Shown here in pieces: positions 1 to 34,064 of a stretch of DNA of 62,817 nt (positions are counted from its first letter, which is position 1; each line of letters starts with the position of its first letter). Below the pieces are notes generated by a model. That model worked only from the letters and a program-made list of their open reading frames with translations. It was not told the DNA's origin and made no database searches. Source of the stretch: Carcharhinus longimanus (Eukaryota); assembly GCA_030264375.1 (NCBI GenBank), contig JASCQW010000105.1, positions 49,203,732-49,266,548 on the forward strand, read 5' to 3'. A program made the translations under genes and the position numbers.

Positions 1-93
1 CCTGACGAAGGAGCAGCACTGTGGAAGCTAGTGGCTTTTGTTATCAAATAAACCTGTTGGACTTTAACCTGGTGTTGTGAGACTTCTTGCTGT
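1..93 (+). mobile_element. Penelope-like (PLE) pLTR fragment with degenerate hammerhead ribozyme motif
   Basis: CTGACGA-A-GGAGCAGCACTGT-GGAA-GCTAGTG then CAAATAAACCTGTTGGACTTTAACCTGGTGTTGTGAGACTTCTT; same family at 10633, 13540-13727 and 21568. Confidence 0.7.
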
Positions 94-1494
94 AAAAATC
101 TCACTGTGGCAATTTGAGAATTTGAATTCAGTTTAAAGAAATTAAGATGAAACTAAGAAACTAGTTGCATTGTTGTAAAAACCCATCTAGATCCCTGATG
201 TCTCTTATTTATTTGTATGAATCTAATCACACACCAATATAGTTGATTCTGATTGATCCATTTAGTTGCATTTAAAACTAGAGAAACTCCTAAAGAAGAC
301 CCACAATCACTTTCTCAGGACAGCTAGAGATGGACAACAAACATCAACTTTTCCAGTAGCAACCACATTTTAAAAATACATTTAAATAATATTACACTTA
401 TAATTAGGTATCAAGGTAAAGGCATTGCATTTTTCAAATCATTAACAGTACAAGCAAGATGACAGAGACATATTAAAATATTAACATGTACCCATTTGCA
501 GGAAACATATATTACCAGCATAATTCAACTTTGCATAAGGTCAAAAGCATCAACATTTAAGATGAGTGTTTAGTCAGCAGTTATTTCTGGCATGTTTTCT
601 AAGTGTGGATTGTAGACTTGTGACACAGCCTGCAATTTTATCTGAACAATAGCTATGATCCACTTCATTAATGTAAAGTCATCTAGTGACATCTAAATTT
701 AATCTTGATATGACATTATGATTTGTTATCTTTGATCCAATTGAAAGCAGTGAACAGGTAGTCATCTTCAAAATAGCAATTCTCCCTCTTTCCTTGAATT
801 TGCAGTGGCTATATTAAGCCAAGTTGATGGACTTAAAACATATAGGATAATCATAGCTTTTTTCATTTAATTGCTTACAGAAACAATTTACAGCTCTAAA
901 AATTACATGTTAACATATAAATGATCACATAACAAAACTAAACATGTAAAGACAAAAGAAATAATAAGCCTGAATCAAAGAAAGAAATGCTCTTTTAGGG
1001 GTTGAAATTATATGTAGACTAAAAGTAAAATACTCGCTGAGCGATTCACTGCTCATATTCATATCTTTTGTTTCATAGGGTTCTTGTTGTTGCTGAGAAG
1101 GCAAAATTGGGGAATGTTATCAGTGAGAGTCATAACATCACCTCAGGACTCTTGACAGCGTTATCTGTATGACAAATGAGCCGTAAAAGTGGAACACAAG
1201 AGAAAAGGCAATGTTACTCTTTTTGAAAAGATCACATAAACTAGACACAATTCTTAAAGTTAGACCATCACCGCACTGCAAATTAAGAGGAGGTTTCATA
1301 TAAAATTGTTTCTGGGAGAATCTGAAGAAGAATGGGCGAAGTGAAGTGATTCTTGAAAATAGTTTGGTGAAAATAAACAGTTTTGTATCGTACATTGTGA
1401 AGGTAAACAGGATCTCATTTTCTTGAAGAAGCTCCATAGCAATTCTGCATGGAAATCATGGGGCTGATAATAGTGGAGCAATGCTGGAAATCCG

Positions 1495-1522
1495 CCCCCC
1501 CCCCCTCCCTCCCCCCCTCCGC
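1495..1522. repeat. C-rich low-complexity run
   Basis: Poly-C / CCCT run. Confidence 0.8.
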
Positions 1523-2019
1523 CGACTATTAGCTGTTTAATGGATTTGCTAATAAGTTTGAGATAATAGGAGTAACATCTCCATTAAAATAGAATTCATC
1601 AAGATGTCATATGAATTCTTCCAGTCAAAGCATTTGTCCAGCCTTATTGCTAATTTTTAATCTTAGATTTTCTGTAGTAATTCCTGCTTGCTAGTTAGGT
1701 AAATAACAATTGCAACGTTTTCTTCCATATAACTATAATACAGAGGCTTGCAGCTTCATGGGTGCCAGTCAGCTTCTGAGAAGTTTCTGGAACAGAAACC
1801 TGAGCTCACCATGGTGATTCCCCACCCAGCTCCCTGAATGGTTCCCTGGGTCATATTCTGAATCCTTAATGGGACAACCACCACAATTTCCACTGCAACT
1901 ATCCAAATCTTTTATGATGAACTATCTGGTCACTAATAGAAAGTTGTTTTTTTTTACCTACTATGAAGCTCAGTTAAAATTATTCTGGAATTATCAGCAC
2001 CGAAACAGAATTATATTCA

Positions 2020-2425
2020 TAGATACCTTATCATGTCTCTTGCAAGTACCCCCAAATACATTTTATGTAACATATTGCATTGAAATGTAGTCATTGTAAC
2101 AATGGAGGCCAATATGTCAGTAAATTCCCAAACAGTAAGTAACCTCAAAACATAAAGATTTGAATAGTTTGCTTTACTTGATTGAGGGAGAAATATTGAA
2201 CAACATTTTGCGAAGAGAATTATTTGACTCTTTTTCAGGTAATACTTAGGGATTCTTAACTTCCACTTGAGCTATACCGGGCAGGTGCTCAGAATCTTGA
2301 GTCATACATCTCATCTGATGCACAGTGTGTCTGACAATGTGCCATTTCTGCACTGGAATTTCATCTGAAATTAGGTACTAGGGCTTGAAATCATTACCTA
2401 CTGTCTCAGAGGAAAGTGTTATCAA
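2020..2425 (-). mobile_element. Old DeuSINE-like SINE (SacSINE1/AmnSINE1 superfamily), degenerate
   Basis: Reverse-strand motifs TGATTGAGGGAGAAATATTG, ACATCTCATCTGA, TCTGACAATG, GGGCTTGAA resemble the Deu domain and a tRNA-like head. Confidence 0.5.
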
Positions 2426-2659
2426 AAGAGTCTAGCTTATACCTTGGGGGGAGACTTTAATCTACTCCACCCAGGGAGAATAGAGCTGAGGGACCTTTTA
2501 AAATGGAACTGCCTGTTTTGCTGACAGCCGTTTTAAGTGCTAACTGCAGATCAGAGGCACGTGCAACTGATGATGCAGGCCTCAACCTTATGCAGATGAC
2601 TGTCGCATTGTATCAATAAATCAGCATCACTCATCAGAGTGACATGCGTCAGTAACATT

Positions 2660-2845
2660 AGAGGTTTTCTCTTTTGATGAACTGTTAAGGTCAGACCCAG
2701 CTTGTCAGTTCAATTGGATAATGATGATTCAATTTGCAGAAGTGTAAAAAATCCTACTGGATATTCTCTGAGCCAATAAATGAGCATTTGGTCATTTACC
2801 TAATCACTATAAAATTGCTGCTGTTTGTGACTAAATAGCAACAAT
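2660..2845 (+). mobile_element. Degenerate DeuSINE-like fragment
   Basis: TTTTGATGAACTGTTAAGG...GGTCATT...AAATTGCTGCTG resembles the Deu core. Confidence 0.35.
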
Positions 2846-3456
2846 TTAAAATCAATGTCCCAGATCTTCCCATCCGTAAGAAGTGAGCTTTCCATCGTGA
2901 CTGTGATTTAATCTGCTCATTCGCCATGCTGCATGGGAGCCGTCATATCTTCATGTTGAGGCTACAGGTTGAATCCAGACATGAACATGTCACAAGGTCA
3001 AGAGAGGGGCAGAGTTCCAGTGAGGTCACATTACTTTTTGTTATCACTGCAGATTCAGGTCCACTTTCAGATCATTGATGGTTTTTCAGTGGACCTATCA
3101 ACCTCTGAAACTACAGAGCCTCCTTCCTCACCCTCTGACAATGTTCACCCCTCCCTCCCCCATCTCGGTGGTTAACTTTATAGTATTAGCCATCGAGTGG
3201 TGGCCATTTTTGATCTGTGTCTTCACATTTTTAAATCAAGTGTACTTTAAACAGTTCAATATGTCTGTGATGAGTTAGTGAAATTGTAGATACGTCTCAT
3301 TCCGTTACAATTTCCTGTCATTGTGACAGAAGTATAAAATCTTTCTGTGTAAGTTCTCTGCATGTGCACACGACAGGGTCCTCAGGATCTCTAGGCACAT
3401 CAGCGACTCACACTGGGTTGTCGCTTTCTTTATTGGAACATGCAGGGCATTGTCTT

Positions 3457-3792
3457 ATCATAGAATCCCTACAGTGCAGAAGGTTGTCATTTGGCCTATC
3501 AGGGCTGCAAGTCTGCACTGAATCTCTAAAGAGCATCTTATCTAGACTTCCCTCCCCTTCACCCCCACCCTATCTCCATAACCCAGTGCATTTACCATCG
3601 TTAATCCAGCTAACTTACACACTAGGGACAATTTAGTAGAACAAATCTACCTAATCTACTGATTTTTGAACGGTGGAAGGAAACAGGAGCACCAGGAGGA
3701 AACCCATGCAGACACAAGGAGAACGTGCAAACTACACATGGACGATAACCTAGTATCAAACCTGATGCTGTGAGGCCAGCCACTGTGCCATC
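3457..3792 (-). mobile_element. HE1-type V-SINE
   Basis: CATAGAATCCCTACAGTGCAGAAG tail, GGAGCACCAGGAGGAAACCCATGCAGACAC V-domain, CCACTGTGCC head. Confidence 0.85.
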
Positions 3793-4119
3793 AATATGTC
3801 TCAATGTAGCTCTCTGAGATATGTTGACATTGATATAATTATTTGATTTCATTTTTCTTGCTATTGAATATTTTTACATTTTTATTTATCACCATATGAG
3901 TATATTGTGCACACCAAGCTGAAAGAAAGATATCATGCATAACCTAACCAGACAATATTTATCTCACCCCTGAGTTATTTGACTAGCTGATACAGGAGGG
4001 AAAACTGGAACAGAATACTCATGAGAACAATTTGCAAATATAGCCTGCTCAAAGATAAGCTGTCAAAAGGACAGATGGACTGAAGTGGGCATGGCAATAC
4101 AGGAACTGGTTTAGCATTG

Positions 4120-4415
4120 GAAGAACAAAAGAAAGGTTCGTATGTTGTCCAGTCTTGATTCTCAAGCAATGGCGTAGATGTAAGTTGAGGAAAACCAAAG
4201 GGTGTTGGCAATCTGGAACTTACTGCTTGAAAGGATGGTAGAGACATGAACGCTCACAACACTTAGGAAGTATTTAGATGAGCACTTGAAATGCTATAGC
4301 ATACAAGGCTACGTGCCAAGTGCTTGATAATGGGATCAGAATAGAATGGTGCTTGATAGCTGGCACAGCCATGATAGGCTGAAAGGCTTCTTTCTGTGCT
4401 GTAAACTCCATGGCT
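4120..4415 (+). mobile_element. CR1/HER1 LINE 3' end
   Basis: ATCTGGAACT...TTTAGATGAGCACTTGAA...GGCTGAAAGGC...TGTGCTGTA, a typical CR1 ORF2 end and 3' UTR. Confidence 0.7.
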
Positions 4416-5699
4416 TTATGAATGGTGAAAGTTAATGCCAAAAAGAGAGACAGGAACAAGGGAGCCAGGAAATGTCTTGCACTGCAGGAGTTATTCATAA
4501 TGATCACCTCTGGCAGATTAGCATTCAGGACATAAAACATGCGTGGGTGTCAAAAGTAAATGCACATGAACTGCGATTTGTTTCAAAGGGCAAACACTTG
4601 AAATTCATCAAGATTTTCATCATTATTTCAGAATTTTGCCTCTTTGGGAAGAAATGAAGAAATCAGGAACAAAGCGGCATAATCTACAACATCTGCGGAC
4701 AAGAAAGTCACCTTGAAAATCATCTAAGCTCCTTCCTTCTTTCCTATTTTAATCTGATCAGAAAGAAGCTGAGAGATAGGAAAAAGTAAAATTATAGTTT
4801 ATGATCTTAGCGAACTGCACTGTATTTTCACATTTCATGTTAAAATTATATACTTTTTCTGTCCCATGTGTTTGTGCATTGATATAAAATAGAAATAAAC
4901 ATTCATTTGCTGAACACTTTCTGATCTGGGGTTAATCTAAGGATATCTGTAATAACAATAATGTCTTCCGTTATTACTGGAATGGCAGTAAGTGAAAAAT
5001 GTTAACTTTATTAGGTCCCGTTATTGGTGCAGGATATTGTGAGTTTGGCCAAAGATTTGGGTATCATCACAAAGGTAGTTTCAATGGTAAGGATACCATT
5101 TGCTGCTAAAAATGGTGTTTGTGCATGCAAGCAGACTTCCAGCCTGGTCCATGCTGGACAGCATCTTGATAAGGGCAATAGCATAGGCATCAGGAAATTG
5201 GAGCAGGAATATGTAAAATAGACAGGTTGGGATGTCATCTGTTGTGTACTGTTGATTAGATGCCGGTGCTGTTATTTTTGGTCTTGCTGCTCCAGCTAAC
5301 GCCCTCTCTTTACACAGGCAGATGGACATGCATTTAACATCAGTAAAACTTACTGTGCCCTGCACCACTAAATAGCGATATTTTAAGGGAGTCATCGACA
5401 ACTTGCAGATTCATTTTGATTCATCTCTACTGATTTTGTTTGGGTTTGTGTAAGTGCATGGTAGTTTGAAGAGTTGTTGAAGTTGGCAGAGAATGGAGCT
5501 GCATCTGGAGAAGAGTCTGGTTGTGTCTACAAAGATTCTGATCAGACCATTTGATGTCAGTCATGGCTTCCATAGTTGCATTCACCCTTTGACTTCACAT
5601 GGGCTGGGGAGGGGGGGTGTGATGAAGTAAAGGCAACAAAGAAGAGTACAAACTGCTCAACAAGGATGGGAGAGATGTGGAGTGGGAGTGGGAGGGGGT

Positions 5700-6050
5700 G
5701 GGGGAAAGATACTCAGCTGGAAATCTTAACTATCTCGGATTTTCTAGGAGCACTTCTCTCACCTTCATCTAAAAGAGGGTCAGTCTGTGTATCATTTGCC
5801 CTTTACAAAGAAGGCACTCACAGATCTCGGTTGCCTTCCAAGTAGACTTGCAACATATGAGATGGGCAAGGACGATGCTGCCAATGGCTATGATAGAGAC
5901 TGGCCTTGTATTTCTTTTCACTGGGGTCTTTCCAGGCTGGAACCAGCGATATATCCTAACATTCCTCAGTTTACCGCAAACAGATTCTTCAGAGAGCTGA
6001 TAGGTGCTCTTCAATCAGAAAATGAGAATTCATTGTGTGCTTTTTATGAT
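5700..6050 (+). pseudogene. PIF/Harbinger transposase N-terminal relic
   Basis: Frameshifted HLPFTKKALTDL ... LPMAM ... FTGVF(Q) resembles the HARBI1-family N-terminus. Confidence 0.5.
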
Positions 6051-6829
6051 CTTCGTAAAGACCAATAACTTATTAAAAATAAATAAATCCCCATAATGCC
6101 AATAGTGTGAAAACTGATGGACAGAATATCACTTTTTAAACCTTTTACTGTAACAAACCAACTAAAATCAGGATATGTTAAACAGTAATTAACTGGCAAA
6201 TGATATAAAAAGTTAACTTTCAATTTAAATAATTGATTCACTAAAGATATGACCCGTGATTACAAACACTTGCATTAATTCTCTCAAAATTGTGACCCCA
6301 TATACAATCACTGTCTTTCCAACTTAGCCTCTTTAATGTCTGCAAAGATATTGCTTTGGCCACTTGCTCTCAGTCAAGAGTTTTACCATTGCAATCACCC
6401 TTGGACGTCAGCATGAGAGATGATGATATCTCACATATTCCTCAATTGATTTGACCCTCAAGTCACGTTCACCAGCAGCTGTTTTCAAACCAAAGTCCCC
6501 AGTCTTGTTGACACCAAGACATTTCTACAAATCCTCTCTCACTCAAGTTATGACAGTCCTGAAGCCATGGAATACTCAGAGGCCTGTTTCTCTCCAGCCC
6601 TATTAAATGGTTCAATTGACTCTGGCAAAACTGAAACAGCAGCAGTGGGAATTGTTTAATCCACAATTGCCTGCTCGCCATGCTTCAGCCCTCTGACCTT
6701 TCCTACTGTTTAACACGCACAACAAGACAGTCCCCATTCTATTCAGACAACCCTGCTTCAACACCAAGATTTGGTTTGAACTGCAGGTTCTGTTTTGAAC
6801 TGTCTATCATGAGTCAGGCTGGTAGCAAT

Positions 6830-7600
6830 TAGCTTTCCGTTTACCCTTTTCTTCTGAGCTTTTCATCCCCATGGAAACCTTAGATCACAGGGCTATTTAT
6901 TGGAGTGTATCTGTCTGCTAGGAAATTCACTTACACCCCTTTCAGAATACATGCTAGTTTCAATTTGGTTTTAAAGAGGACATTGCATTAAAAGAAAATC
7001 CCACAGCACATGGATCATCACAGTTCCCCGAATAGAGAGAAACAGGCAGAGCATACATGCGGTTTTGCCAGGGTACTGAACTTTCCCATAGTGCAGAGAA
7101 CCATCAATTGCAAACACATGCTTTTGCAGGCAGCACACCACAACGTTGACATGTGCCATAACTGCAAAGTTTACCACTCATTGAATCTGAAGTTGGTGTA
7201 TGACTATACTTAGCACATCAAGCTGGTAAATGCCCATTATTCTCACAACTGTGATGCTACTTTCATTCTCTGACAGTGCACTTATCTCTGAACCACCATA
7301 CTAAAGGGTGACTGGCAGCAAAAGCTATCTGACTTACACCTGGCTTGTGTCTCTAATCCGCATCCCATGTGGCTAGCAATATAAAATGGGACTCATACAT
7401 GAAACGTCATAGAACAGCCTATGGAATCGCTGATGAAATCCTTCTGCTGTCTAGACAGCTAAGGCAAAAGAGCCTTATACTCACAAGAATACTTGTCCTG
7501 ATTCATGATGTCTGCTATGTCCTTCACACTTTGACTCTGAAGGCACAACCCTTGCCACTCGGCATATGTCAAGCAAGTCTGCAGATGGAGGAGTAAGCAG
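6830..7600 (+). pseudogene. PIF/Harbinger (HARBI1-like) DDE transposase relic
   Basis: ORF 7010-7213 GFARVLNFPIVQRTINCKHM...NCKVYHSLNLKLVYD matches family motifs FPxVQGAIDCTH / NRKGYHSLNVQLVCD; degenerate downstream HDAFIL-, KGY-WL- and IEQ..FRCLD-like motifs. Confidence 0.75.
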
Positions 7601-8051
7601 AAGGGGGAAAGGAGAAGGAGGAAGTGAGGAGAAAGAGAAAGGGGTTGGGAGGGAAGAGACACTTGGCATATCGCTGTGTCAGCCAGGCCATTGGTGATTG
7701 CCTTGTTCCACTATAGTTCTCATAAACACCTCAATCCCCATTGTACAAAGGCACACTCTTCACTATCTCCCTGACATGAACAATTAAAGTGCCTTTCTGC
7801 CACAACATTGAAACAAAGCCATCACAAAACAATGATTCCAAACCAACTTTGTGAAATAAGCTCTCCAATCGGATAATTGTCCCTATGCATTCCCTCATCT
7901 TGTGCTGCCTTTGACTGGCCTCATGCTCCAACGCAGCACCTCTGCTCCCAGTTCATGATGCGCTATATTTCTGCAATTTGAAGGTAACTCAATTGTTCCT
8001 TTGCAGAATTTTACATGTTTCTGGCTGGCTTCACCACTGAGAAAATAGAAT

Positions 8052-8212
8052 AGAACTTACATTGATATAGCACCTTTCACAGTTTCAGGAAATCGCAAAG
8101 CATTTTACAGCCAATGCAATACTTTTGAAAAGCAGTCACTGTTGTAATGTAAGAAACACAACTACTTTGTGCACAGAAAGATTCCAGACAGCATGAGGTA
8201 AATGACCAGATC
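8052..8212 (-). mobile_element. DeuSINE/L2-tail SINE 3' fragment
   Basis: AACTTACATTGATATAGCACCTTT...CAAAGCATTTTACAGCCAATG...GTCACTGTTGTAATGTA. Confidence 0.6.
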
Positions 8213-9139
8213 CAGATCATGGTCTAGAAATTGAACCCCATCATATTGGGCTGCTTCTAGTAATTTTCCATGAGTAGGCTATGACTGCTGAGAATGTGCA
8301 GCTGTGTATATGCCACAACACTGCAGTCTGCAGGAAGGATGTGCTTAATTACAAAGTACAGTAAAACAAGCATGCAAAGTCACAACCAAATGCATGCAAT
8401 GTCTGCAAATATGGCTCTCCACTCCCTGTGACTGTGGGATTGTCCCTATACACTCAGTTCCCACACTCAAGATGACCTCCAGTCTTTAAATTTTCTTTGA
8501 GGAGTAACTTTTTTTCTGTATTCTATACATAAGAATGCTATCCTGTACCAAAATGTACAAAGGAGTACAAATGAGATTCATTTTGAGGTACATGTCTTGT
8601 ACGCCTGTCGTCCATTTGGTGAGTTTATAACGAATGCTTACCCTACTCCTCAGCCTCAGATTGTGTTGAGATGCTCTCTGAGGAGCAATTATAACAGGAT
8701 GGAGGTCACAACCCTGTGAGAGATGGAGTCACATCTAGTAATGTATTGGCAGTCAGGGCTCACTCTCTGGATTTTCTTTAATCTTTTGAGGAATTAGGAC
8801 GATATCCAAACCCCTTGTGGTATGTCACCTGATTGCTAGGCACCCCAAAAAGGAGATGAGAGCAGTGTGTGGAATATTTTCAATGTGGTTTCACAAGTCT
8901 TTTCAACCGATTTTTCTGTCAAACCCAATAAAGATAGACTGCTGTAACTGGGTGTTACAGCAGTCTGTAACTGGGGAACTCAATGATTCCAATGCTCGTG
9001 ATGGAATGTTATTATTCATTCATTACCTTACTGCTTTGGGCCTGCAGTTGCTATGAAACTGTGAACTTCTTTATAGTAGTTGCAAGTGTGTGTTGCTACA
9101 GGTACACTGTTAACAATGTCAGCAGTCAGTTTTTTAAAA

Positions 9140-9515
9140 ATTAATTTACAAGATGTGGGCAGCCCTGACCTGACCAACATTTATTCTCATCCCAATTGCC
9201 CTTCAGAAAGTGGTGATGAGCTGCCTTTTCAAACCATTGCAGTCTCTGATATATAGTGGCACCCACTGTGCTGTTAGGGAGGGAATTCCAGGATTTTGAC
9301 CCAGCGACAGTGAAAGAACAGCGATATTTTTCCAAGTCAGAATGGTGAGTGACTTGGAGGGGTACATCTAGAAGGTCGCGTTCTTAAATATCTGTTGCTC
9401 TTGTCCTTTTAGATTGCAGCGATCGTGGTTTTGGAAGGTTCTCCCAAAGGAATCTTGGTGAGTTTCTGCAGTGCACCTTGCAAATGGTACACGCAGCTGC
9501 CACTGTTCATTGGTG
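9140..9515 (-). mobile_element. CR1/L2-group LINE 3' fragment
   Basis: Minus ORF SFTVAGSKSWNSLPNSTVG...LQWFEKAAHHHFLKG; related fragment at 33060-33380. Confidence 0.75.
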
Positions 9516-10306
9516 GTGAATCATTTCCACCACTAAAGTCATCAGTGCTGCATTCATCGTTCTGGAACCCTCTCTTGGCTATTGTATTCAGTTCACCATC
9601 GTGTATTTGCAGCAATATTCTTCAGTGCAGTTACCCTTTGAGACAGTTAACCTACTTTTAAGAGGGGCAGATGGGCTGCTTCGTGTGGTTCCTGAACAGA
9701 CTAAGCGCAGGCGACACACACGACCACTTAGCCAGTTACTATAATCCTCTGGATGTATCAAATTTGCAAGCTTCATACCTTGATGTGAACAGACACAGAC
9801 AGGTCACACATGGCAACCATCCCCATGCAGAAAAGAGTGTAAGCCAATTGCTAGCTCAATGTACGCCCCTTTAGAGTAACAAGCTGCAGCTATGTTCCAC
9901 AATTTCTTCCAAGTGTGTTTTAAAGAGTCTTTTTGTTAGAAAACGAAGGTTTGGGCACCATACAACCCAGAGAAGCTTGCTGCATGAACATCTGCAGGAT
10001 TATCCTTGATCTTTTCTCCAATCACCCATCCTGAACGTTACTATTTTTTATTTGGATTATTGCACGTTCAGATTGACCTTCTGCAGCTATTCATAATAAT
10101 CAGCATATTTTATCATTGGCTTACTATTTAGTTGATTAGAATTGTAATAAAATTGTAAGACCATTAATATATCCATCAAGGATCTCAATTTGTACCAAAA
10201 TGGAGGTTGCTGTTCTCAAGTTCAATGTAATCAGACACACACTTTGCCTCAACAGTCCCACTTGTCATTTGGATCAACTCTGATTCAGTTCAAGTTTTAG
10301 TTTGTC

Positions 10307-10749
10307 AATCTTTTTGACTAAACAAATAAACTAAATCAAATTCACTGAGGGACAAATAAAAAGGGAAATCCCCAAAAAGAAGTGAACCGCCTGAACCTAA
10401 AAACAAATCAGAAAGGAAACTTAAAACATTAAACCAAAATGTGATTAAAGGGGTCACTAATACACCCCAGCTCCTGCGGTGCCCAACGAGCACAGAAGGC
10501 CTCAATGGAGCGCTGGACACCACATGGTCCAGGGATACCCGGCTACAAATGTAGCCATGGTAGAGGGGCAGGCAGTCGGGCTGGACAACCCCCTTGGTCA
10601 CCCACTGCCTGGGCCTGTTGATGGCAAGTTTGCTACAAATAAACCTGTTGGACTTTAAGCTGGTGTTGTGAGACTTCTTTCTGTTTTACTCCAGTCCAAT
10701 GCCTCTTCTCCACATGATGGCAAGTTTGGCCAGGCCCAGCAACAGGTTG
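10307..10749 (-). mobile_element. 5'-truncated Tx1-clade LINE 3' end with 15-bp TSD
   Basis: LLLGLAKLAINR..Q..GVVQPDCLPLYHGY, homologous to 45394-45714; AAGTTTTAGTTTGTC duplicated at 10292-10306 and 10750-10764. Confidence 0.8.
10633..10714 (+). mobile_element. Penelope-like terminal fragment nested in Tx1, 14-bp TSD
   Basis: CAAATAAACCTGTTGGACTTTAAGCTGGTGTTGTGAGACTTC...TCTCCACA flanked by TGATGGCAAGTTTG at 10619-10632 and 10715-10728. Confidence 0.75.
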
Positions 10750-11794: not shown

Positions 11795-12872
11795 GCCCAT
11801 TATGGAAATAGTCTGTTGCTAGTTGCGATGGCAATATAAATGAAAGGTATTACTCTTGAGGGACTATAGAAACAGAGAGACCTGAGGGAATATGTGCACA
11901 AATTGTTGAAGGAAGCAGGGCAGATTGCGAAAGCAGTTAAAAAGGCAGAGGGATTTCTGTATTTTATTAATAAAGACACAAAGTACAAAAGGAAAGAAGT
12001 TGCAAGAGTTTTTTTAAACTCTAATTCAGCCTCAATTGCAACATTAGGCAGGATTTTCAATTGTGGGTTGGAAACCCAGCTACAGGTTTAGCTCTGGGTC
12101 ATGACCCCGCAGGGGGTGTTCCCAGCAGACCCACCTGGAATTTAAAGAGTCAAACCAATTAATCAAGGAGCAGCTGGCAATGGGAGGGCCACCAGCACTG
12201 GCTATCTCCACTGCTGACTGGATATTTCAGTAGGCGTGGAATTTACCAATAATTGGCTGAAATTGGCAGTCTGCTGCTTCCTGGAAGGCAGTTATTCCAG
12301 CTCTGAGCTTCCCACATTGGAAATAGCTTATTGTTGGGATTGTGGTAGGAAAACAATACACGGCCAATAGTGTAAGATTGTACACCTGATCGCAGCTCCA
12401 ACACATTTATAAATCCATGTCCTAGTGTCCAATTCTGGGTGGCACACTTTTGGCAGTAGAGAGAACATGAAAAAGGGACTTACAAGAATGTTTTCAGAGT
12501 TGAGAATTACATGGATAGATTGGAGAAGCTGGGGTCCTCTTTAATGAAGACAAGATTGCGAGGAAATTTGATTAAAGTGTTCAACGTCATGGGGGATAAA
12601 ATAGATTGAGGCAAAACTATTCTCATTGGCTGAATGGCCAAGAAGCAGAGGACAGTGATTGATTGGAATTTGAAATGCACTATCTGAGAGAGAATGATGG
12701 AAACAAATCCATTCAGGCTTTTCAAAAGGAATTGGACAGTATGATATGGGAAAAGATTTGCAGAACCGCAGCTGTAAGATGGGGAATGGGACTCACTCTT
12801 TCAGAGGGCCAGAATGGATACAAGGAGCCAAATAGCCTCCTTTCGTGCCATAACTATTCTCTGATTGTATGA
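11795..12872 (+). mobile_element. Degenerate CR1 ORF2 3' part, interrupted at about 12045-12410
   Basis: QRDLREYVHK..AVKKA..FINKDTKYK; later VQFW, RLEKLG and a CR1-type 3' UTR. Confidence 0.7.
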
Positions 12873-13539
12873 GATAGATTACACAATTACCATACAGCTA
12901 AAATAATGATCTTTTAATACTCCTCAAGCAATTAAGAAGCCACTTAACCAATTCTGAAATCCAAATATATGTTAATCCAGCTGGAGAGTGCTCAGTGTAT
13001 GCAGTAATGGTTTAATTGTAATAGAAGAAAACCCAGGTTACTAACTAATCCCTTTATATGCTCGCAATCACATTCTGGAGTATATGCATTTTTGCTGGGA
13101 TAGGTCATCCTTTAAATTATCTAAGGAGGTAATACACATGGCAATTCACCACTGAAACAAACACTGAGTTAATTACTCAGAAGACCTGGGAGCTTACATG
13201 ACTTTAAGCAGAAGCAAGGTATGAATATTAATGTTATGTAGCAGCACAGGTATGAACATGACAGAATAGACTCATTGTTAAAGATTATATACAAAAAATA
13301 TTGTGTCAACACAGAACTATTAGCAAAGATATGGCTAATAGGTAGTAGTGGGAGTGAAAATAGCAAGGTTACACAAATTACAAGAGACATTCCATGATGG
13401 AAAAAGAATTCTGTGCATTAATCACCAAGTCTGAATTCACACCTCTCTAATATTTAGAGACAAACCTTGCATATACAGAAGGTTTCTGTATGTACCAAGC
13501 TATGGGCTCTGACATAAAACAATACCGGGAAGAAATGAA

Positions 13540-13727
13540 GTGGAGATGCCAGTGTTGGATTGGAGTGGGCACAGCAAGAAGTCTCAGAACACCAGATTAA
13601 AGTCCAACACATTTATTTGGAATCACAAGCTTTCGGAGCAGTGCTGATGATGAAGGAGCAGTGCTCCAAAAGCTCATTATTGCAAATAAACCTGCTGGAC
13701 TTTAAGCTGGTGTTGTGAGACTTCTTA
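13540..13727. mobile_element. Inverted pair of Penelope-like pLTR fragments with hammerhead motif halves
   Basis: 13576-13645 is approximately the reverse complement of 13655-13726. Confidence 0.75.
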
Positions 13728-13851
13728 ATACAGGACAATGCAATCTTTGATTTATTCAAGAGGGAGAATTTGGTGATGTTAAATCCGGAAGGGGTGTAGC
13801 TGTGTTGAAACTTTTCACGCAAATCATATATTCTATGATTTGCAGACACCA

Positions 13852-13976
13852 CAGCTGAAATTCTCTAGCCATTCACAGCCCACCGTTGCAGCCAGTGAGA
13901 ATAGAGAATTTGGATCTCTGTTCACTGTAGCGGCTCAGAGAATCCCAGCTGCGGACGAGGTCGTATAACCCAGCTG
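13852..13976 (+). mobile_element. Short MITE (probably Harbinger-derived)
   Basis: CAGCTGAAATTCTC...GAGAATCCCAGCTG inverted ends; internal GAGAATAGAGAATTTGG shared with 44839 and 53998. Confidence 0.55.
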
Positions 13977-14064
13977 TTGTAACTAAATGCCCATACATAT
14001 TAGCATAATCTACACTGCTGACGAAGTACCTAACTCACAATCGTCCTGTACAACAAAACTGTTA

Positions 14065-16010
14065 CATAGAAATATAGAAAACAGGTGAGAAGTAAGCCAT
14101 TTGGCCCTTCGAGCCTGTGCCATGATTCAATATGATTATGGTTGATTATGCACTTTCAGTATCCTACTCCCGTTTTCTCTCCATATCCCTTGATCCCTTT
14201 AGCCAAAAGGGCCTCGTCCAGCTCCCTCTCAAACACATCTAACGAACTGGCCCCAATAGCTTTCTGTGGTAGAGAATTCACAACTCTCTGAGTGAAGAAG
14301 TTCTTCCTCATCTCAGCCCTGAATAGTTTACTCCTTATTCTTAGACTGTGACCCTTAGTTCTGGACTTCCCCAACATTGGGAACATTTTTCCCTCATCTA
14401 GCCTGTCCAGTCCCATCAAAATTTTATATGTTTCTATGAGATCCCCTTTCATTCTTCTAAATTCCAGTGAGTACAAGTCCGGTTGATCCAGTCCCTCTTC
14501 ATATGTCAATTCTGCCATTCCAGGAATCAGTCTGGTGAACCTCTGCTGGATTCCCTCAATAGCAAACATGTCCTTCCTCAGACTAGGAGACCAAAACTGC
14601 ACACTGTGCTCAAGGTGTGACCTCACCAATGCCCTGTATAACTGCAGCAAGGCATCCTTACTCCTGTACTCAGGTCCTTTTTCTATGAAGGCCTGCATCC
14701 ATTATCTTTCCTCACTGCCTACTAATCTTGCATACCAACCTTCAGCAACTGTTCCACCATGACACCCATGGTGTCCCCTTTTCCTAAACTGCCCCTGTTC
14801 CTATACTGCCATAATTCAGACAANNNNNNNNNNNNNNNNNNNNNNNNNNNNNNNNNNNNNNNNNNNNNNNNNNNNNNNNNNNNNNNNNNNNNNNNNNNNN
14901 NNNNNNNNNNNNNNNNNNNNNNNTTCTATGAAGGCCTGCATCCATTATCTTTCCTCACTGCCTACTAAACTTGCATACCAACCTTCAGCAACTGTTCCAC
15001 CATGACACCCATGGTGTCCCCTTTTCCTAAACTGCCCCTTTTCCTAAACTGCCATAATTCAGACAATAATCTTCCTTCCTGTTTTTGCCATCAAAGTGGA
15101 TAACGTCACATTTATCCACGTCATATTGCATTTGCCAGGTATTTGCCCACTCAGCCAACCTGTCCAAATCACCCTGCAGCTTCTTAGCATCCTCCTCACA
15201 GCACACATGGCCACTCAGTTTAGTGTTGTCTGCAAATTTGGAGATACTGCACTCAATTCCTTCATCTAAATAATTAACATATGTTGTGAGTAGCTGGAAT
15301 TCCAGCACTGAACCCTGCGGTTCCCCACTAGTTACTGCCTGCCACTCTGAAAAGGAGCATCTATTCCCACTCTCTACTTCCAATCTACCAACCAGTTCTC
15401 TATCCACATTACTCCCAATACCATGAGCTTTAATTTTGCTCACTAATCTCTTGTGTGGAACCTTGTCAACAGCCTCTTGCTAGTCAGATAGAAAACATCC
15501 ACTGGTTCACCCTTGTTTACTCTACTGGTCACATCCTCAAAAAGTACGATTTCCCTTTGGTGAATCCATGCTGACTTGGGCCGATCCTGTCACTGCTTTC
15601 CAAATGCTCAGTTATTACATCTTTAATAAAACTCCCATCCTTTTCCCCAGCACCAATGTCAGGCTAACCAGCCTATAATTTCCCATTTCCTCTCTCCCTC
15701 TTTTTTAAAAAACTGGGGTTACATTAATGAGCCTCTAATCCATTGGAACTCTTCTGTTGGAAAATGATCACCACTGTGTCCACAGAGCATCATGCCCTGG
15801 AGACTTATCAGATTTTAATCCCAGCAATTTTCCCAAGACAATTTCATGACTAATAAGAATTTCTTCGATTTCCTTCTTCATGCTAGACCCTCTGTCCCCT
15901 AGTATTTCCGGAAGGTTATTTGTGTCGTCCTTATTGAATTCAGATCCAAAGTATTTGTTCAGCTGATCTGCCATCTCTCTGTTGCCCATTATGATGGATA
16001 ATTCCAATGG
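14065..16010 (-). mobile_element. CR1 (HER1-like) LINE, 5'-truncated, ORF2 RT disrupted
   Basis: VTSGEPQGSVL, ISKFADNTKL, LQGDLDRLAEWANTWQM, LYRALVRSHLE..VQFWSP; (TTTCTAT)-type tail; KSDKSPGHD upstream. Confidence 0.92.
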
Positions 16011-16139
16011 ACAATTAGCTTTCATTGGAAATCAATCATAGACTTCAGGTGGTTCCAATTGTCTTAGCAGAATATTCACCCAGGAAAAGTTGGAAGAATT
16101 GAGATGGTTTATAACTACTGGTTAACTATTATGCAGAAT

Positions 16140-16622
16140 CCCCCTGCCCTGACAACCCACTGGACCTCCCAAATCATTGCAGTCGCACCCTGACTATCTT
16201 CCTGATTACCCCCCATACCTGCAACTACCTTCCCAGCCACCTGATTAGCCCCCATTCCTCACCTACCTTGCTGACCCCAAGTAAACCCTCCTCAACTCCT
16301 GACTGTGCTCAATTACCTCCCAACTCTGTCACCCCCACGACTCTCAATCCCTGTCTCCGACTATTCCCTCCTGGCTAACTACTAACTCTCCCCAACCCAT
16401 GACTGCCCTCAACTACCTCCCAACCCCACAACCCTCAACTATCCTCAACCACCCTCCCTGAGTACCCCAACCCTCCCACTGAACACTTGACCCAACTTAA
16501 CCCCTTCATTGACTGCCCAACACCCCAACTTATCCTGTCCCGCTCTTGATACCCCTGACCACATCCCCTGACCCCCTCCTTTACATCCCATCCTACCGAC
16601 TTACCTTCTCCCTGGCTCCTCA
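16140..16622. repeat. C-rich degenerate minisatellite-like tract
   Basis: Recurrent AACTACCTCCC, CCTGACT and ACCCC units. Confidence 0.6.
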
Positions 16623-17149
16623 AAGTGCCTAGGACTTTTAAACTTACCTAGGGCCATACAAAATGAGCACAACTTTTCTTTTCCAGAGGGCTGGTAAAGC
16701 CTAGGAAGAGTTGTTAGGCCTATTGTGTGCCAGGAATGCAAGATTCACGTTCAATAGGCTGACTCTTTTGATCTCAGAAGTGTTTGGTGATGTATTTGCA
16801 TGGGCCCCCTTAATGATTTGAAAATTCCGGCAATGAAGATAATGCATTTCATGTCTTGTCACCTCGCAAATCTGTGCCTATCATTCTTGAAATTCCATGT
16901 TTGATTTTATTTCCAATTAGATTTCCTCCCATGCTACAGCACTGAGACTGTCCCATAAAGTCACAGTAAGACATCCTTTGTGCCTTTAATAATGGTGTAT
17001 TATCTTCTACAATCTCCCTCCGCAGCCTTTGACATAGTTAGCCATACCATCTGTCTCCCGTACCTTCACTTGAGATTGGTTAAATTGTTACACATTTCAC
17101 CACTGCACACAACCATGCACAAGAGTTCCACAGTGATTTTTAACAATCT

Positions 17150-18250
17150 CAGTTAGATAGGTCTGGCATTCTCTGGGAATTTCTCTTGACCTCAGGAAGC
17201 TAGATGATGAGAACAAGTTGTATCGCCATGAGAAGAGGCACATCAATGTATATCTGAGCCAGTCTTCCCTAACCTGTTATTACCTGAAAAGGCAGTCTGC
17301 GTAGATGACATGGCAGTTACCATAGCACATCCAGGAGATCTGCCATCACCAGCCATGCTTTATCAAGTATCGGGGGTGGGGGTGNNNNNNNNNNNNNNNN
17401 NNNNNNNNNNNNNNNNNNNNNNNNNNNNNNAAGCATAAACTTCAACCTAGATGGAGATGGCGACATTTACCACTACTTTGAACTTCAACGCAACAAGCTT
17501 CCTTAAGGTTATACTGGGTGAGGTTTGGTACACCATTCAGCCTGCAATATTGTTGAGTTCACAGTTTATCCAATGGAGATCTACATGAGCGGCCTCAGTG
17601 CTTTTCAGGCTGGCCATATTCCTGAGGGTGCAAAACCGTATTGGCGCAAGCCATGTGACCATATGGGGGTCCTTTCAACTATCATTTTGATTCTATGAAT
17701 AGGAAAGGGATCATCAGCACCACATTGTTTTGAAGATGGATTCAGCAGTGGCTATGCTGGCGTGACGCCAGGTATTCCAGGAGCTGCCATGATGCATTTA
17801 TCTTACAGATTTGACTGCCTGCACTATTTAATGAGACATCTGGATTAGCCAGATGGATCCTGAGGGACCTGGGGATGCCCGCTTCAGCTGTGCTCATCAC
17901 ACTAGTCTAAATCAAAGAACTACAGATCAAAGAAAATATGAGGCACACTTCCCAAAAGGACCCAAACATTCTAAATCATAGACATACTTAAGCAACTAAT
18001 TCAGGACTTGGATTAGCTCATGAGGGTATCCTTTCGTACAGGCCTGGAAAGATCAATAAAATATTAATAGTTGAGTTGGATGACATACAGTTAGATTCTC
18101 AGAAGAGGAGGCACCAAACAGCAGGTGGAAGCAGAGGGTCAGGCATACCATAAGGAGGACAATGATAAGCCCAAGGCTGAAGATTTGCCAGCTGCACTAG
18201 AACTGCAACAAGGGAACAAATACATCACTGTCTGATAGACAACAATTTCA
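17150..18250 (+). pseudogene. PIF/Harbinger transposase relic
   Basis: Degenerate motifs in order: FLRVQ..SHV, FMNRKG (TTCTATGAATAGGAAAGGG), PGSCHDAFIL-like (CCAGGAGCTGCCATGATGCATTTATCTTAC), WILRD.G; E/Q-rich tail. Confidence 0.7.
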
Positions 18251-19510
18251 ATTAAAACTCAAAGTCACCCCAGCATTGCTGAGTACATGTCTCCAGTGAA
18301 CTGATGCACCAAACTCCTTATCCACCATTATCCTCCATTTAACCTCAGTCACCATGCACTGATATCCATTCATCTCCAGAATCAGACATCTTAACCTAAC
18401 ACAGATAAAATCTCTAGACAAGGTGGGAATGCAATTTAGATAATTTATTAATCAATGACACTTGGCATGCTATAAATCTTTTCCCCTCTCAATGCCCTGT
18501 GTCCAGTTAAGCCTTTCTTTTCTGGATACTAACCGAGTGGAATGAGGAAGTGAGGTGGCTGGCTAATGGAAGTCACCCAGCAACTCCTTGTTTGGACGAG
18601 GGTTTTTTTTTACCTTGGTCTGTTGGATAATAAGTGGCTCAGTGGCTGCTGATGTCACACTCCATATTTTCATAGCTGCTGCTGCCCCCTTATTCTATTT
18701 CTTAACACAGGCCACTTGAATGGGACAGCAGAGTTGTATGGATTTTGAACTCTTCCAGGTAAGCTTATTCATGCTTATTTCTGCCATGCCATGCCATGAT
18801 GTACCTTCAGCATAGCCTGTGATATGCATATGGACATACAACAAGCCTGCCTGCACAGGGTGCATTGAGGCCCCCTCTCAAACAATTGCTCAATTGGGCA
18901 GGAAAAATGTATTGACAATGTTTCAACAATGTCAGGTTAAAAATTCCTGACAACATACAGAATGTCCTTGAAATCTCCGTTGAGAAAGTCTCCTCTGCAG
19001 TTAAACTCTGGAAGTGTAGGTAGCAAGAGCATTTGTTATAGTACCTCTGCGCTACTATGTAAGTGACAGTAGGCATTGCTTTTCAGAACAATAAACCTGA
19101 AGCCGCTTAAGTAAAGGATCTCACCCTTTGTTTCACAGCTGGTTAAATGGATATTATAGTGCATGAAGTGGATGCAGTGGTTTGATGATTACCATGTTTG
19201 AAAATCCATTGTACTTTGTCCATGCAATGGCTTAGTCAAAACTGCAATGATCATAAGTCATAAAAGATAAAGGCCACTTTACAGCTAATCATAGTGCCAC
19301 ACTGATGGTAAAGTTTGTTTGCAGGTCAGAAGGCAACATATGGTACAAGTTGTGCTACTGCTTCCCTGATAAGTCAAAGCCCACTCACAACCTGTTGAAG
19401 AATTCAGGTTAGAAGAACACCTCTGTTGATATTTACAGGTGGAAGGGTGATGGTGAGTTGCAAATTCACCAATCTAACCTCTCTGTTGCTTCTCCTCATC
19501 TTCCTCAGAC

Positions 19511-19622
19511 AATGTTTCCTCTGGGTGTTCCAGTTTCCTCCTGCACATTTAAAAAATGTGCAGGTTAGGTTGATTAGCCATGCTAAATTACCCTTAGCAT
19601 CAAGGGGGCCAGCAGAGTAAAT
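19511..19622 (+). mobile_element. HE1-type SINE internal fragment
   Basis: TTTCCTCTGGGTGTTCCAGTTTCCTCC...CAGGTTAGGTTGATTAGCCATGCTAAATT. Confidence 0.75.
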
Positions 19623-19849
19623 CTATCTCCCTCCATTCTCACTGGCAGCGGTCGTGGGTCATAAAACACCAGCAAGTCCTGTCTTTGATTTTAAAGGTTA
19701 TAAAAGTACGTTATATGACTGCTCATAGTTGATATTACATGAGATGCAAACCAAATCAATTTCTTCCAATACTGCATGTTGTTCACTACATTTACAATTA
19801 TAATTAATATTTATAAGAGTCATTACATGTCAAACATAACCTAAGGTGT

Positions 19850-20150
19850 TTTGCCCAGTTTTCAGCCTGTTGGAATATGATGTCTGAAAAGCCTTAGATG
19901 ATGGCCTTTCTTCTTTGTACCATTGTGGCAGCTGTTCCAAGCTTTAGTGTGTGCCTCAGAACATAGTCCTCAACGTTGGAATGTGCCAGTCTGCAAAAGT
20001 AGATCGTGGACATCTCATTGCGCTGGAAGACCACCATGTTTCAGGCAGAGCCAAGAGTGTCTTTCACCAAGTTGGTAGTTCTTCAGCTGCAATTGATGTT
20101 TGTTTTGATGTGCTTCTCTGGGACTGCTCGTACAGCAGAGTCCCACATTA
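19850..20150 (-). mobile_element. Tx1-clade LINE ORF2 C-terminal fragment
   Basis: Paralogous to 20500-20780 (TAGTCCT..TTGGAA.GTGCCAGTCTGCAA, AGAGTGTCTTTCA). Confidence 0.6.
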
Positions 20151-21567
20151 TAGATAGAGCTACTCGCCAAAAACCATGGCACTTTATGGATTCATTGCAA
20201 TTGTTTTTGCAAAAGTATACTTTCTCTATAGTTTATTTGAAAGAACGTTACAAACATTCAAAATTGCCATCACATAATGTGTAGCAATATTCAGGTTCTT
20301 TACATACATTGTGTCGTGCTCTGAGGTGCTTCAATCCAGTCAAAGAAACATTACGGGTATTCCAAATGGTGCAAAGATATTTAAGGTTGTCTACTCAGAA
20401 CATGTTGCATCCCAAGGTCCTTCAATACAGCTGAGACACATGTAATATTCACTGTATACTTTCAGTGATTCATTCAGACTGAGGGGGTTCCATTCCCTTC
20501 AGTTCACTGTAGCTGAAAGGTTTTAGACAGTGACCTTCTCCCACTTCCCCTCTGCAACAACTGCCCCAAGTTTTAGTGTGTTGCTCAGCAGATAGTCCTG
20601 AGCTTTGGAACGTGCCAGTCTGCAACACCCAGCCCAGGACAGCTTCTTGTACTGGAAGGCCAACAAGTTTTGGGTAGACCCAAAAGAGTCTTTCATCGAG
20701 TTGATGATCCTCCAAGAGCAGCTGATGTTTGACTCAGAGTGCGTCCCTGGGAACAGCCCATAGAGCACCGAGTCCTGTGTCACAGAGCTGCTCAGGATGA
20801 AACTCAGCAAAAACCACCCCATCTCTCTCCAGATCTTTTTGCAAAGGCACATTCTGCAAGATGATGGACACCAATCTCTTCCCGAACACAATCACCTCAA
20901 GGGCAAAGTTCAGGTGCGGTGAGATTCTGGGCATTTACGGGGAGGCTTTCACCTGAGTGCCTCCATTGCCTGGCATCATCACACAACTTATGCCAAAATT
21001 TTTCCTGATGGACTCAGCAAATACAACGCACAAACAGGAGAGGAGAGAGAGAATATCCCTGCCTGATTCCAGATTTAATTAGAAAGCTTTCTGATTCCCA
21101 CCTGTTAATTGAAACCGTGCTAATGATCTTTGTGTAGAGCAGTTGGATCCAATTTCAGATTCCCTCCCCAAACCCCATTTTGGAGAGCGTATCCATCATG
21201 TAGTTATGCGATATTCTGTCAAAGACCTTCCCCTGGCTCAGGCTGATGAGGCAGATGTCCACTCTCTGTCTTGCACATAGGCATATATACCCCTGAATAG
21301 CGCAAGGCTCTCAGAAATCTTCCTGTCAGAAAAAGAGCAGCTCTGATCTGGGAGGATCACCAACTCCGAGGAGACTTGACCCAATTGGTGAGGCAATGGA
21401 CACAATTTTATAGTCCACATTCAACAGTCATCAATCTCTAATTTCTTCCCTTTTCCCCTTCTGCTTATAGATGAGGTTAATGATGCCTTTCCTCAAGGAT
21501 TCTGACATGCTCCCAGCCAGAAGCACATGTTCAGACACTCCCAGCAGATCTGGGCTAATCCAATCCA

Positions 21568-21669
21568 GTAAGAAGTCTCACAACACCAGGTTAAAGCACA
21601 AAACACACAGGTTTATTTGGTAGCAAACGCCACTAGCTTTCGGAGTGCTGCTCCTTCGTCACTCACCTG
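21568..21669 (-). mobile_element. Penelope-like pLTR fragment with near-intact hammerhead core
   Basis: Minus strand reads GTGACGA-A-GGAG-CAGCA-CTCC-GAAA-GCTAGTG then CAAATAAACCTG. Confidence 0.75.
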
Positions 21670-33380: not shown

Positions 33381-34064
33381 TCAAATTTCAGGTCCAAATC
33401 AAACAGCCCACAATATATGTGTTGCTGCCCAGCACACCTAATTCTTCAAATGATTGAAGTTCCACACAACCTTTAAAGTATCCTCAATGCTCTTTGGCAA
33501 ACTATGGTGCAGAAATTATTCGGAAGTTAAACTAAAAATAAGAAACACTGCATTACTTCTGAAGTTCACAAGAACATAAAATTTGTTTGTGCTTCACACT
33601 GATATTGAATTCTGCCAATGCTTTCTTTCTGCTTGGTAATTGCCTGTGAAATATCAGCAAAAGTGAGATCTGTCTATGAGTAACATTCTGACAGCTGACA
33701 CATTTATTTCATGATTTTTTTCCAAATTTTAGTTTGATGATGATGCAGCCAAAATGGAGAGTTCAGCAACAATTGTACAGTTATTCACTATGTTTGTATT
33801 CAACATCAGAATGGAGAAGCAGTTGCAGTCAAAAGTAGTCCCATAATACTCGTCCCTGCTCTTTTCCGTGCCTCCACTGAAAACAAGTGAGGAGCCCTTT
33901 CTTGCAGCTGATCTTTTTTCCTTTAGATGGAATCCTTCCGCCTGGAAACAGACATCAATGGCAGCATCAGTGTGCATAGCAGAATGACCAAACTGACATC
34001 AGTTTAGGCAGATATGAAAGGGGTCAAGTTCTTGGATGTTACAACACACTACTCTAATGTAAGT

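Follow-up and report, generated by a model that had tools for sequence, protein, structure and literature searches.

Decayed copies of a minimal type I hammerhead motif and their probable origin from a Penelope-like retrotransposon in Carcharhinus longimanus

Motif copies in the window

We examined a 62,817-nt stretch of the Carcharhinus longimanus genome (the window) for copies of a minimal type I hammerhead motif and the pLTR sequence around it (Table 1). A pattern search allowing up to 3 mismatches gave two matches, at 13647-13674 (+) and 21635-21662 (-), and none in each of 100 shuffled sequences. The copy at 2-33 lies above 3 mismatches, yet it is 87% identical over 93 nt to a genomic pLTR at a locus designated L158. 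Sequence and pattern search together bear out the motif at all three places named in the first-pass annotation, and reading the sequences confirms that each of these copies carries at least one core lesion.

Table 1. Coordinates of pLTR remnants and associated features in the window
Feature	Position	Strand	Detail or basis
pLTR remnant, 'long' subfamily, without tail	1..93	+	sequence; L158 pLTR comparison
Core CUGACGA 2-8, bulged A 9, stem II 10-14/18-22 (damaged)	copy 1..93	+	sequence
GGAA in place of GAAA 23-26, AGCU 26-29, H17=A 30, stem I 3' strand 31-33	copy 1..93	+	
pLTR remnant with 39-nt tail, without ribozyme	10633..10715	+	5' end ~10 nt downstream of ribozyme cut site
13-bp target-site duplication around 10633-10715	left 10620..10632, right 10716-10728	+	
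Inverted arm with tail, without CUGANGA	13538..13645	-	keeps stem II 3' strand, GAAA, AGCU-U, GUG
Direct arm without tail, no stem I	13647..13727	+	lesions C3>A, G12>A, G1.1>A
pLTR remnant, 'long' subfamily, without tail	21566..21662	-	GAAA-AGCU-A-GUG intact
10-nt in-place inversion of the segment with stem I 5' strand and C3	21660..21669	+	sequence

In copy 1-93, whose stem I 5' strand falls outside the window, the lesions read from the remaining sequence are A13>G and two stem II pairs broken at the 3' strand base. The site at 13624-13675 had been described as a motif on both strands. The motif is present there, but as two truncated head-to-head copies and not as one two-sided ribozyme, because the - arm (13645 down to ~13538) begins within stem II and lacks CUGANGA. 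Folded together, the two arms form a single extended hairpin (-90.2 kcal/mol, z -8.4), which would bury the motif. An MIR845-like Rfam match at 13611-13691 corresponds to this hairpin. In the copy at 21566-21662 the loop-closing stem II pair is broken and C3 is lost (C3>G), as first reported; the stem I 5' strand, reported missing, is present but flipped, reading CACTCACCTG on the + strand at 21660-21669. Any target-site duplication flanking the 13538-13727 and 21566-21669 copies is degenerate at best.

The family member at 10633-10715, the fifth in the window, was absent from the earlier annotation. An empty site for this insertion is seen in a paralogous host repeat at 45590-45615.

No single window copy has a complete min-HHR core. 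The damage comprises truncation, CpG decay and inversion, and the sequences predict copies that lack catalytic activity and cannot cleave RNA. Cleavage as dimers is inapplicable to them because they are damaged, and lie kilobases apart or on opposite strands. An Rfam scan of the window, which presents only these damaged copies, returned 16 matches at E<=10 and none to a hammerhead family. A tblastn search of the window gave no PLE ORF remnant, and no tandem pLTR array was found there.

The genomic family and its host element

The exact motif pattern has 2,575 matches in the genome (none for a reversed-pattern control), and a 32-mer downstream of it has 17,036 exact matches (control also 0). 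The motif has the architecture of a minimal type I hammerhead: CUGAYGA-A, a 5-bp stem II, GAAA, a palindromic AGCU and a 3-4-bp stem I. In an alignment of 98 copies whose members were not chosen by the core pattern, C3 U4 G5 A6 N7 G8 A9, G12 A13 A14 A15.1 and U16.1 H17 are the majority letters, and the core is fully intact in 38 copies. G12 is altered in 28 of the 98 and G8 in 15, both at CpG, compared with 2-8 for other core sites. Median pairwise identity is 85.5% among 33 copies. The family consensus, checked for loss of the core or stems, retains CUGANGA, GAAA, UH, stem II and a CAC/GTG stem I.

Stem II of the family contains G10.1-C11.1 and shows covariation. Its fourth pair is G-C in 72 of the 98 copies, A-U in 12, A-C in 6, G-U in 5 and another combination in 3 (Fisher p 1.5e-7); by hand count among the genome matches listed, the A variant has U as its partner in 61 of 100 rows, the G variant in 6 of 100. 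The length, loop and pairs of stem II differ between subfamilies while the core is fixed, and the covariation goes back to a small number of subfamily-level events rather than to many independent changes. Stem I pairs as C-G (80/97 copies), A-U (82/96) and C-G (93/96) with a variable fourth pair, and shows no clear compensatory change in the aligned copies. The palindromic 15.1-16.1 segment, AGCU in the majority, would permit a dimer helix III. The minimum free energy structure of intact copies consists of stems I and II in 3/3 cases, and the monomer folds are no more stable than those of shuffled sequences (z 0.05 to -1.1). Under a nearest-neighbour cofold model, which leaves core contacts out of its energies, the double hammerhead reaches -18.9/-19.3 kcal/mol versus -28.7/-32.8 kcal/mol for the more stable stem II duplex.

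The motif is linked to an RT-zinc-linker-GIY-YIG ORF, whose stop codon precedes it by ~250 nt and whose start codon follows it by ~126 nt (counted from C3). The motif is present (<=4 edits) 520-560 nt downstream in 20 of 30 loci found with an endonuclease fragment, a set that takes in the query's own locus as one of the positives. At L158 the order is inverted stub, pLTR, ORF, pLTR, and the ORF is colinear for RT, thumb and EN, with frameshifts. An RVT_1 match for the protein (E 1e-4) is below the cut-off; homologues carry RVT_1 and PF26215, and GIY-YIG (PF01541) in 2/15. The closest homologues are annotated shark proteins with 79-87% identity, and intact homologues of 881-882 aa have 50-58% identity. 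Across eight aligned sequences CX4CxxC, VVY...YIG and R are invariant, as are C205, C210, C213, C248 and C252, and two histidines are present in most. A Pfam search with this genome's endonuclease fragments gave no direct GIY-YIG match, and a PDB sequence search gave 0 matches. None of the copies examined showed an intact ORF; the long 'open frames' returned by the protein search consisted of N runs (2/6 fetched loci were ORF-listed).

Judged from these sequence features, the host of the motif is an autonomous-type, ORF-bearing EN+ Penelope-like element, and appears Neptune-like, with the clade placed by motifs. Motif copies were also checked for flanks unrelated to a PLE ORF, which was not the case. 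The proposed Penelope link is upheld by ORF-linked loci, L158 and protein homologues, all of which tie the motif to RT plus GIY-YIG ORFs. Since the consensus keeps its core and stems and has this link, the sequence gives no grounds for rejecting a Penelope-borne hammerhead. The suggestion of a separate non-autonomous retroposon family did not survive: the same pLTR flanks the ORF at L158, and the window lacks a tandem array. The window copies are short insertion remnants and not members of such a family because the motif sits in the pLTR of an ORF-bearing element. They are very probably decayed pLTR remnants of an abundant Penelope-like retrotransposon with a minimal type I hammerhead motif, predicted to be dead.

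Copy ends and the integrating RNA

We mapped 5' ends with a 39-reference method and leave-one-out simulations; sequencing-run contigs were used for element boundaries only. Among 90 randomly anchored copies, 81 are shorter than ~200 nt and lack the ORF, and an inverted partner was found for 38. About half of copies form head-to-head pairs, with junctions that vary from copy to copy. The 3' ends of 212/266 copies fall in two bins, at sites 39 nt apart, and the 39-nt tail is on one arm only in 42/46 head-to-head pairs. Target-site duplications flank copies; the 8-9-nt matches in our survey, which had no control, may be chance. The 5' ends cluster at the ribozyme 5' edge (62/160 at -28 to -42) versus 7/160 at +1 to -2 of the cut site. 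This cluster peaks at -28, -33 and -36 and spans 15 nt, more than a single start site predicts; it adjoins a TATA/Inr-like motif pair and was not reproduced by a uniform-truncation simulation. No excess of 5' ends was found at G1.1, the expected cleavage footprint, where the hazard is 0.013 per nt versus ~0.01 nearby.

The 5'-end distribution and the one-armed tails suggest integration from uncleaved RNA. The element RNP would nick AT-rich DNA, and reverse transcription would begin at either of two internal RNA positions, 60-100 nt 3' of the cut site, with each DNA end using one of them. Synthesis of cDNA would go back through the ribozyme and stop mostly at its 5' edge, which is probably the transcript 5' end. 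Because inserted copies cross the cut site without an excess of ends there, the templates had likely escaped cleavage or been re-ligated. In active ancestors, selection would have acted on the structure of the motif, whose cleavage, in dimers or assisted by the element protein, was likely weak; decay after insertion would be neutral, with CpG sites changing first. A more specific form of this proposal, which we offer tentatively and hold to be doubtful, is that the stubs are fossils of in vivo Penelope integration, made by reverse transcription from two leader sites of a pLTR-promoted transcript, one per target strand, with run-off at a start just upstream of the hammerhead.

The 5'-end cluster could instead arise in the same element at integration, through cDNA snap-back or annealing at the quasi-palindrome TCA-CC-TGA on the border of the ribozyme or through RT fall-off at that point, unlinked to transcription start. 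We consider this a serious possibility, somewhat short of an even chance. Eight copies end at -28, most of them behind an inverted GTGAG stub (compare the window inversion at 21660-21669), the arms share a subfamily class in 22/27 pairs versus 34% expected, and palindromes at inverted junctions were interpreted as self-priming in the part of PMC3846280 available to us. However, copies for which no inverted partner was detected show the cluster as often (16/34) as paired copies do (42/92), and TATA-like and Inr-like motifs lie at the matching distance. In addition, 5/27 pairs differ in class, clearly so at locus L155, for which a single cDNA would be insufficient unless mutation followed.

The absence of a pile of ends at the cut site also speaks against another origin, in which the copies would be a non-autonomous, ribozyme-bearing retroposon in its own right (retrozyme- or SINE-like) that replicates via its own cleaved circular RNA. 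The small size and lack of an ORF of most anchored copies, their target-site duplications and their clustered 5' ends, as expected of a defined unit, would fit such a retroposon, and tandem non-LTR retrozymes are reported in a chondrichthyan in the available part of 10.64898/2026.07.22.740005. We nevertheless find it very unlikely, given one sense ribozyme per insertion with no tandem array in the window, the same subfamily variants on ORF-linked copies and head-to-head junctions that are not shared. It is scarcely credible that the motif was never a ribozyme and is a hairpin formed by chance between flanks resembling a hammerhead: all 11 invariant letters of the core fit the published min-HHR, as do the bulged A, G10.1-C11.1 and the palindromic 15.2-16.2, the pLTR location is as in other PLEs, and the core stays fixed across subfamilies that differ in stem II, although the Rfam result for the window and the weak folding z-scores would agree with a chance hairpin, and in decayed copies the non-CpG core is conserved no better than the downstream tail.

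Relation to known elements and significance

The motif is ordinary for Penelope-like elements: hammerheads of this kind are already known, and minimal hammerheads in vertebrate PLE pLTRs have been published (PMC4209133, available sections). With the min-HHR of metazoan PLE pLTRs, as described in those sections (Cervera and De la Pena 2014), it shares the core, the extra nucleotide between 9 and 10.1, G10.1-C11.1, the palindromic 15.2-16.2, a short stem I, the pLTR location, and thousands of dispersed single copies in several covarying subfamilies. In the shark motif, stem II is 5 bp long with a loop of 3 nt, and stem I is 3-4 bp long; the corresponding lengths in the S. mansoni min-HHR are 7-8 and 4-5 bp. 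The main-text parts and one supplement of that paper make no mention of sharks.

The features in common with EN+ PLEs of the Neptune clade, according to the part of PMC8557442 available, are a single ~880-aa ORF, RT, a CX2-5CxxC linker, a C-terminal GIY-YIG with CCHH, partial tandem pLTRs, an adjacent inverted copy and a 30-40-bp tail on one end. A second parallel is PAc (Poseidon) of Anolis carolinensis (Frangieh et al. 2024, PMC11167929), in which two internal RT start sites also define the tail, synthesis extends both DNA strands, the main template is uncleaved RNA and the ribozyme site shows no RNA ends; for the shark element, the RNA and template features are those suggested by genomic copy ends. 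Unlike the shark element, PAc belongs to the Penelope/Poseidon clade, which has no zinc linker, and its ORF starts inside the ribozyme and its reverse transcription within the ORF, whereas in the shark element the ribozyme and both start sites precede the start codon. Non-LTR retrozymes (10.64898/2026.07.22.740005, available part) likewise have a type I hammerhead and are pLTR-related and non-coding, but form tandem repeats with a ribozyme per unit, whereas the shark copies are single or head-to-head.

New here are the pile of 5' ends at the ribozyme 5' edge, not the cut site, and the one-armed tails in head-to-head pairs. At least 17,000 shark copies provide a large natural sample for end-mapping statistics on cleavage of the integrating RNA, and the subfamily variants are natural ribozyme mutants for assay. 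The sample bears on the role of PLE hammerheads and the origin of pLTRs, inverted copies and the one-sided tail (PMC8557442, in part; PMC11167929). If the stubs are indeed fossils of run-off integration, tens of thousands of them would be complete 'leader copies' and not random truncations, and from the missing cut-site ends it would follow that integrating RNPs keep the ribozyme silent. Dividing the number of G1.1 ends by that of start-site ends would then give a genome-encoded gauge of in vivo cleavage in any PLE-bearing genome.

Hammerhead copies in the window

The window holds minimal type I hammerhead motifs of a Penelope-like element (PLE) whose link to an ORF is real, whose local copies are predicted to be dead, and whose kind is already known. 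The accessible text of PMC4209133 reports minimal hammerheads in PLE terminal repeats (pLTRs), single motifs scattered by the thousand through coelacanth and Xenopus, and minimal PLE hammerheads that do not cleave as monomers and cleave weakly as dimers; that of 10.64898/2026.07.22.740005 describes one chondrichthyan with tandem retrozymes as well as PLEs. In the literature searched on Penelope/Neptune elements, sharks, hammerheads and pLTR truncation, the shark family is undescribed, and the end-mapping argument (truncated pLTR copies against the cleavage site) has no match; Repbase, Dfam, subscription journals and figures lay outside this scope and may hold the family.

Read directly, the sequence contains the motif at all three places named in the first-pass annotation, and a pattern search of the window (at most 3 mismatches) gave 2 matches versus 0 in 100 shuffles. 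The site at 13538-13727, annotated at 13624-13675 on both strands, consists of two truncated copies in head-to-head arrangement. This pair folds as a single extended hairpin (z -8.4; none of 200 shuffles equally stable), which accounts for a weak microRNA-like Rfam match; the Rfam scan of the window returned 16 matches, none of them a hammerhead. The core lesions that had been claimed are present, with at least one essential core base missing or changed in every window copy, and on folding none of the three forms stems I and II together. No PLE ORF remnant was found in the window. Several further copies whose end lies at -28 from the ribozyme cut site have a GTGAG stub in front that resembles the 10-nt inversion at 21660-21669.

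Features of the window
Position	Strand	Feature	Remarks
2-33		Ribozyme copy	More degenerate, yet inside a 93-nt stretch 87% identical to a genomic terminal repeat
10633-10715		Fifth family copy, a stub without ribozyme	Within another repeat; flanked by 13-bp direct repeats
10620-10728		This stub with its target-site duplication	13 bp, perfect
45590-45615		Empty site for this insertion	Paralogous repeat copy
13538-13727	- and +	Two truncated copies, head-to-head pair	
14156-14701	-	181-aa open frame	Presumably resembles C-terminal part of CR1/L2-type LINE ORF2
21660-21669		In-place inversion	Segment upstream of core
34049-34325		Degenerate array	38-42-nt units
24176, 38330, 39165, 41002, 50476, 57670		tRNA-like SINE family, many copies, plus inverted ones	Taken by us to be HE1

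The family and its ORF-bearing element

The exact 28-nt motif pattern has 2,575 matches in the 2.68-Gb genome and a 32-mer adjoining the motif has 17,036 exact matches (reversed controls, 0 for each). From 284 distinct copies in the fetched loci we kept the 98 that span the motif, without selecting on the core pattern; because selection was by BLAST similarity, strongly decayed copies are under-represented. Their majority sequence, CAC-CUGAYGA-A-GGAGC-AGC-GCUCC-GAAAGCU-H-GUG, retains the core and the stem I CAC/GTG pairing of the consensus proposed from the window. The core is intact in 38 of the 98, and its lesions pile up on CpG guanines (G12, 28; G8, 15; other sites, 2-8). Non-CpG core sites are conserved no better than the tail, a 39-nt extension at the distal 3' end, a pattern that neutral decay of inserted copies would predict. 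The 33 long copies compared have a median identity of 85.5%.

A GIY-YIG-like frame lies upstream of one motif copy, and the motif (at most 4 edits) occurs 520-560 nt downstream in 20 of the 30 loci returned by a search with that frame, one being the query locus. Reverse transcriptase (RT) motifs were met on walking upstream (for Pfam RVT_1, an E of about 1e-4 that falls short of the cut-off). The complete layout, with both pLTRs, is found at locus L158 (G000:C27, minus strand): an inverted stub, a pLTR with ribozyme and tail, a ~2.65 kb frameshifted ORF and a second pLTR. These loci bear out the suggested link to a Penelope-like RT and GIY-YIG ORF. A second locus, L094, has its start codon 126 nt from C3, and its frame is similar to the N-terminal end of an intact homologue of 881 aa. 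Among 15 homologues of more than 600 aa, annotated shark proteins come closest (79-87% identity), which suggests a shark as the host; RVT_1 was detected in 7 of the 15, PF26215 in 9 and GIY-YIG in 2, and a protein atlas returned GIY-YIG/HTH_animal clusters at 0.96. Neither the CX4CxxC linker nor the GIY-YIG residues vary across 8 sequences, which by the description in the accessible text of PMC8557442 would place the element in the Neptune clade. Several annotated shark gene isoforms (P0006, P0008, P0010, P0011, P0012 and P0016) hold 74-87% identical pieces of the protein, either exonised fragments or annotation artefacts.

Ribozyme structure

Stem II pair 4 covaries among the 98 copies (G-C 72, A-U 12, A-C 6, G-U 5, other 3), and hand counts of listed rows gave 61 with U opposite among 100 of 996 for the A variant, against 6 among 100 of 3,885 for the G variant, a covariation that reflects one or few subfamily events, so that p-values overstate independence. 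Further subfamilies differ in loop size and additional pairs around an unchanged core. Minor ones with altered stem II and the same core (loci L193/L194, L063, L064, L042, L046 and L055) have 5-nt or 7-nt loops, a G-rich 4-bp stem or a U-A closing pair, and are natural variants usable in an assay. Stem I has 3-4 pairs, in which no compensatory change stands out. Stems I and II both form when three intact copies are folded, at a stability not above shuffles. For two copies, in a model that ignores core contacts, two hammerheads paired via the AGCU palindrome reach -18.9 and -19.3 kcal/mol versus -28.7 and -32.8 kcal/mol for the competing duplex.

Copy ends and integration

Among 266 copies with readable flank, 98 3' ends fall in one 10-nt bin and 114 lie at or past a second site 39 nt further. 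These two ends are the PLE tail, tied to two internal RT start sites in the accessible text of PMC11167929, where the Anolis ribozyme is protein-assisted and dispensable for in vitro insertion. In contigs of four other organisms, among the matches listed, the distal end appears in 4/4 runs and the proximal in 3/4, and element boundaries agree with those of this genome. The pLTR stretch is present in contigs of nine organisms from ten studies (sequencing runs X1-X23). An inverted partner accompanies 38 of 90 anchored copies; of 46 head-to-head pairs with readable flanks, a few of which may be nested neighbours, 42 carry the tail on one arm, 3 on both and 1 on neither.

For 5' ends, 160 of 234 copies were kept after excluding protein-anchored loci and flanks containing N. 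With both arms of a pair, as well as a duplicated locus, included although not independent, 62 ends lie at -28 to -42 from the cut site, 60 at +14 to -27, 15 at -43 to -99 and 23 beyond; no excess was found at the cut site (7/160 at +1 to -2). The hazard per nt is 0.063 within the cluster versus about 0.01 elsewhere. Simulated uniform truncation placed 115/714 and 132/714 calls in the cluster bin, where 95 and 109 truly belong, which indicates little mapping bias. The cluster is equally frequent in unpaired (16/34) and paired (42/92) copies. A TATA-like box precedes an initiator-like A at -35 by 29-30 nt in 26 of 77 long copies, and 35 of the 77 match both expressions. In accessible text, a rotifer element has TATA plus Inr within its pLTR (PMC3846280), and Drosophila Penelope starts transcription inside its pLTR (PMC2377424).

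From the cluster, the few cut-site ends, and the TATA/initiator-like pair with these precedents, we tentatively infer that most stubs might be run-off cDNAs, a possibility to which we give rather less than even weight. Synthesis would begin at an internal start on the element RNA and, for most stubs, continue until the 5' end of an uncleaved transcript. Three observations count against run-off: the cluster is broad, peaking at -28, -33 and -36; many -28 ends bear an inverted stub, which fits snap-back at a quasi-palindrome; and in 22 of 27 pairs the two arms belong to one subfamily class. A re-ligated circular RNA template would also yield no ends at the cut site.

At L155 and L220, two central pairs, the head-to-head arms apparently come from different subfamilies; if true, this would need two RNA templates per insertion.
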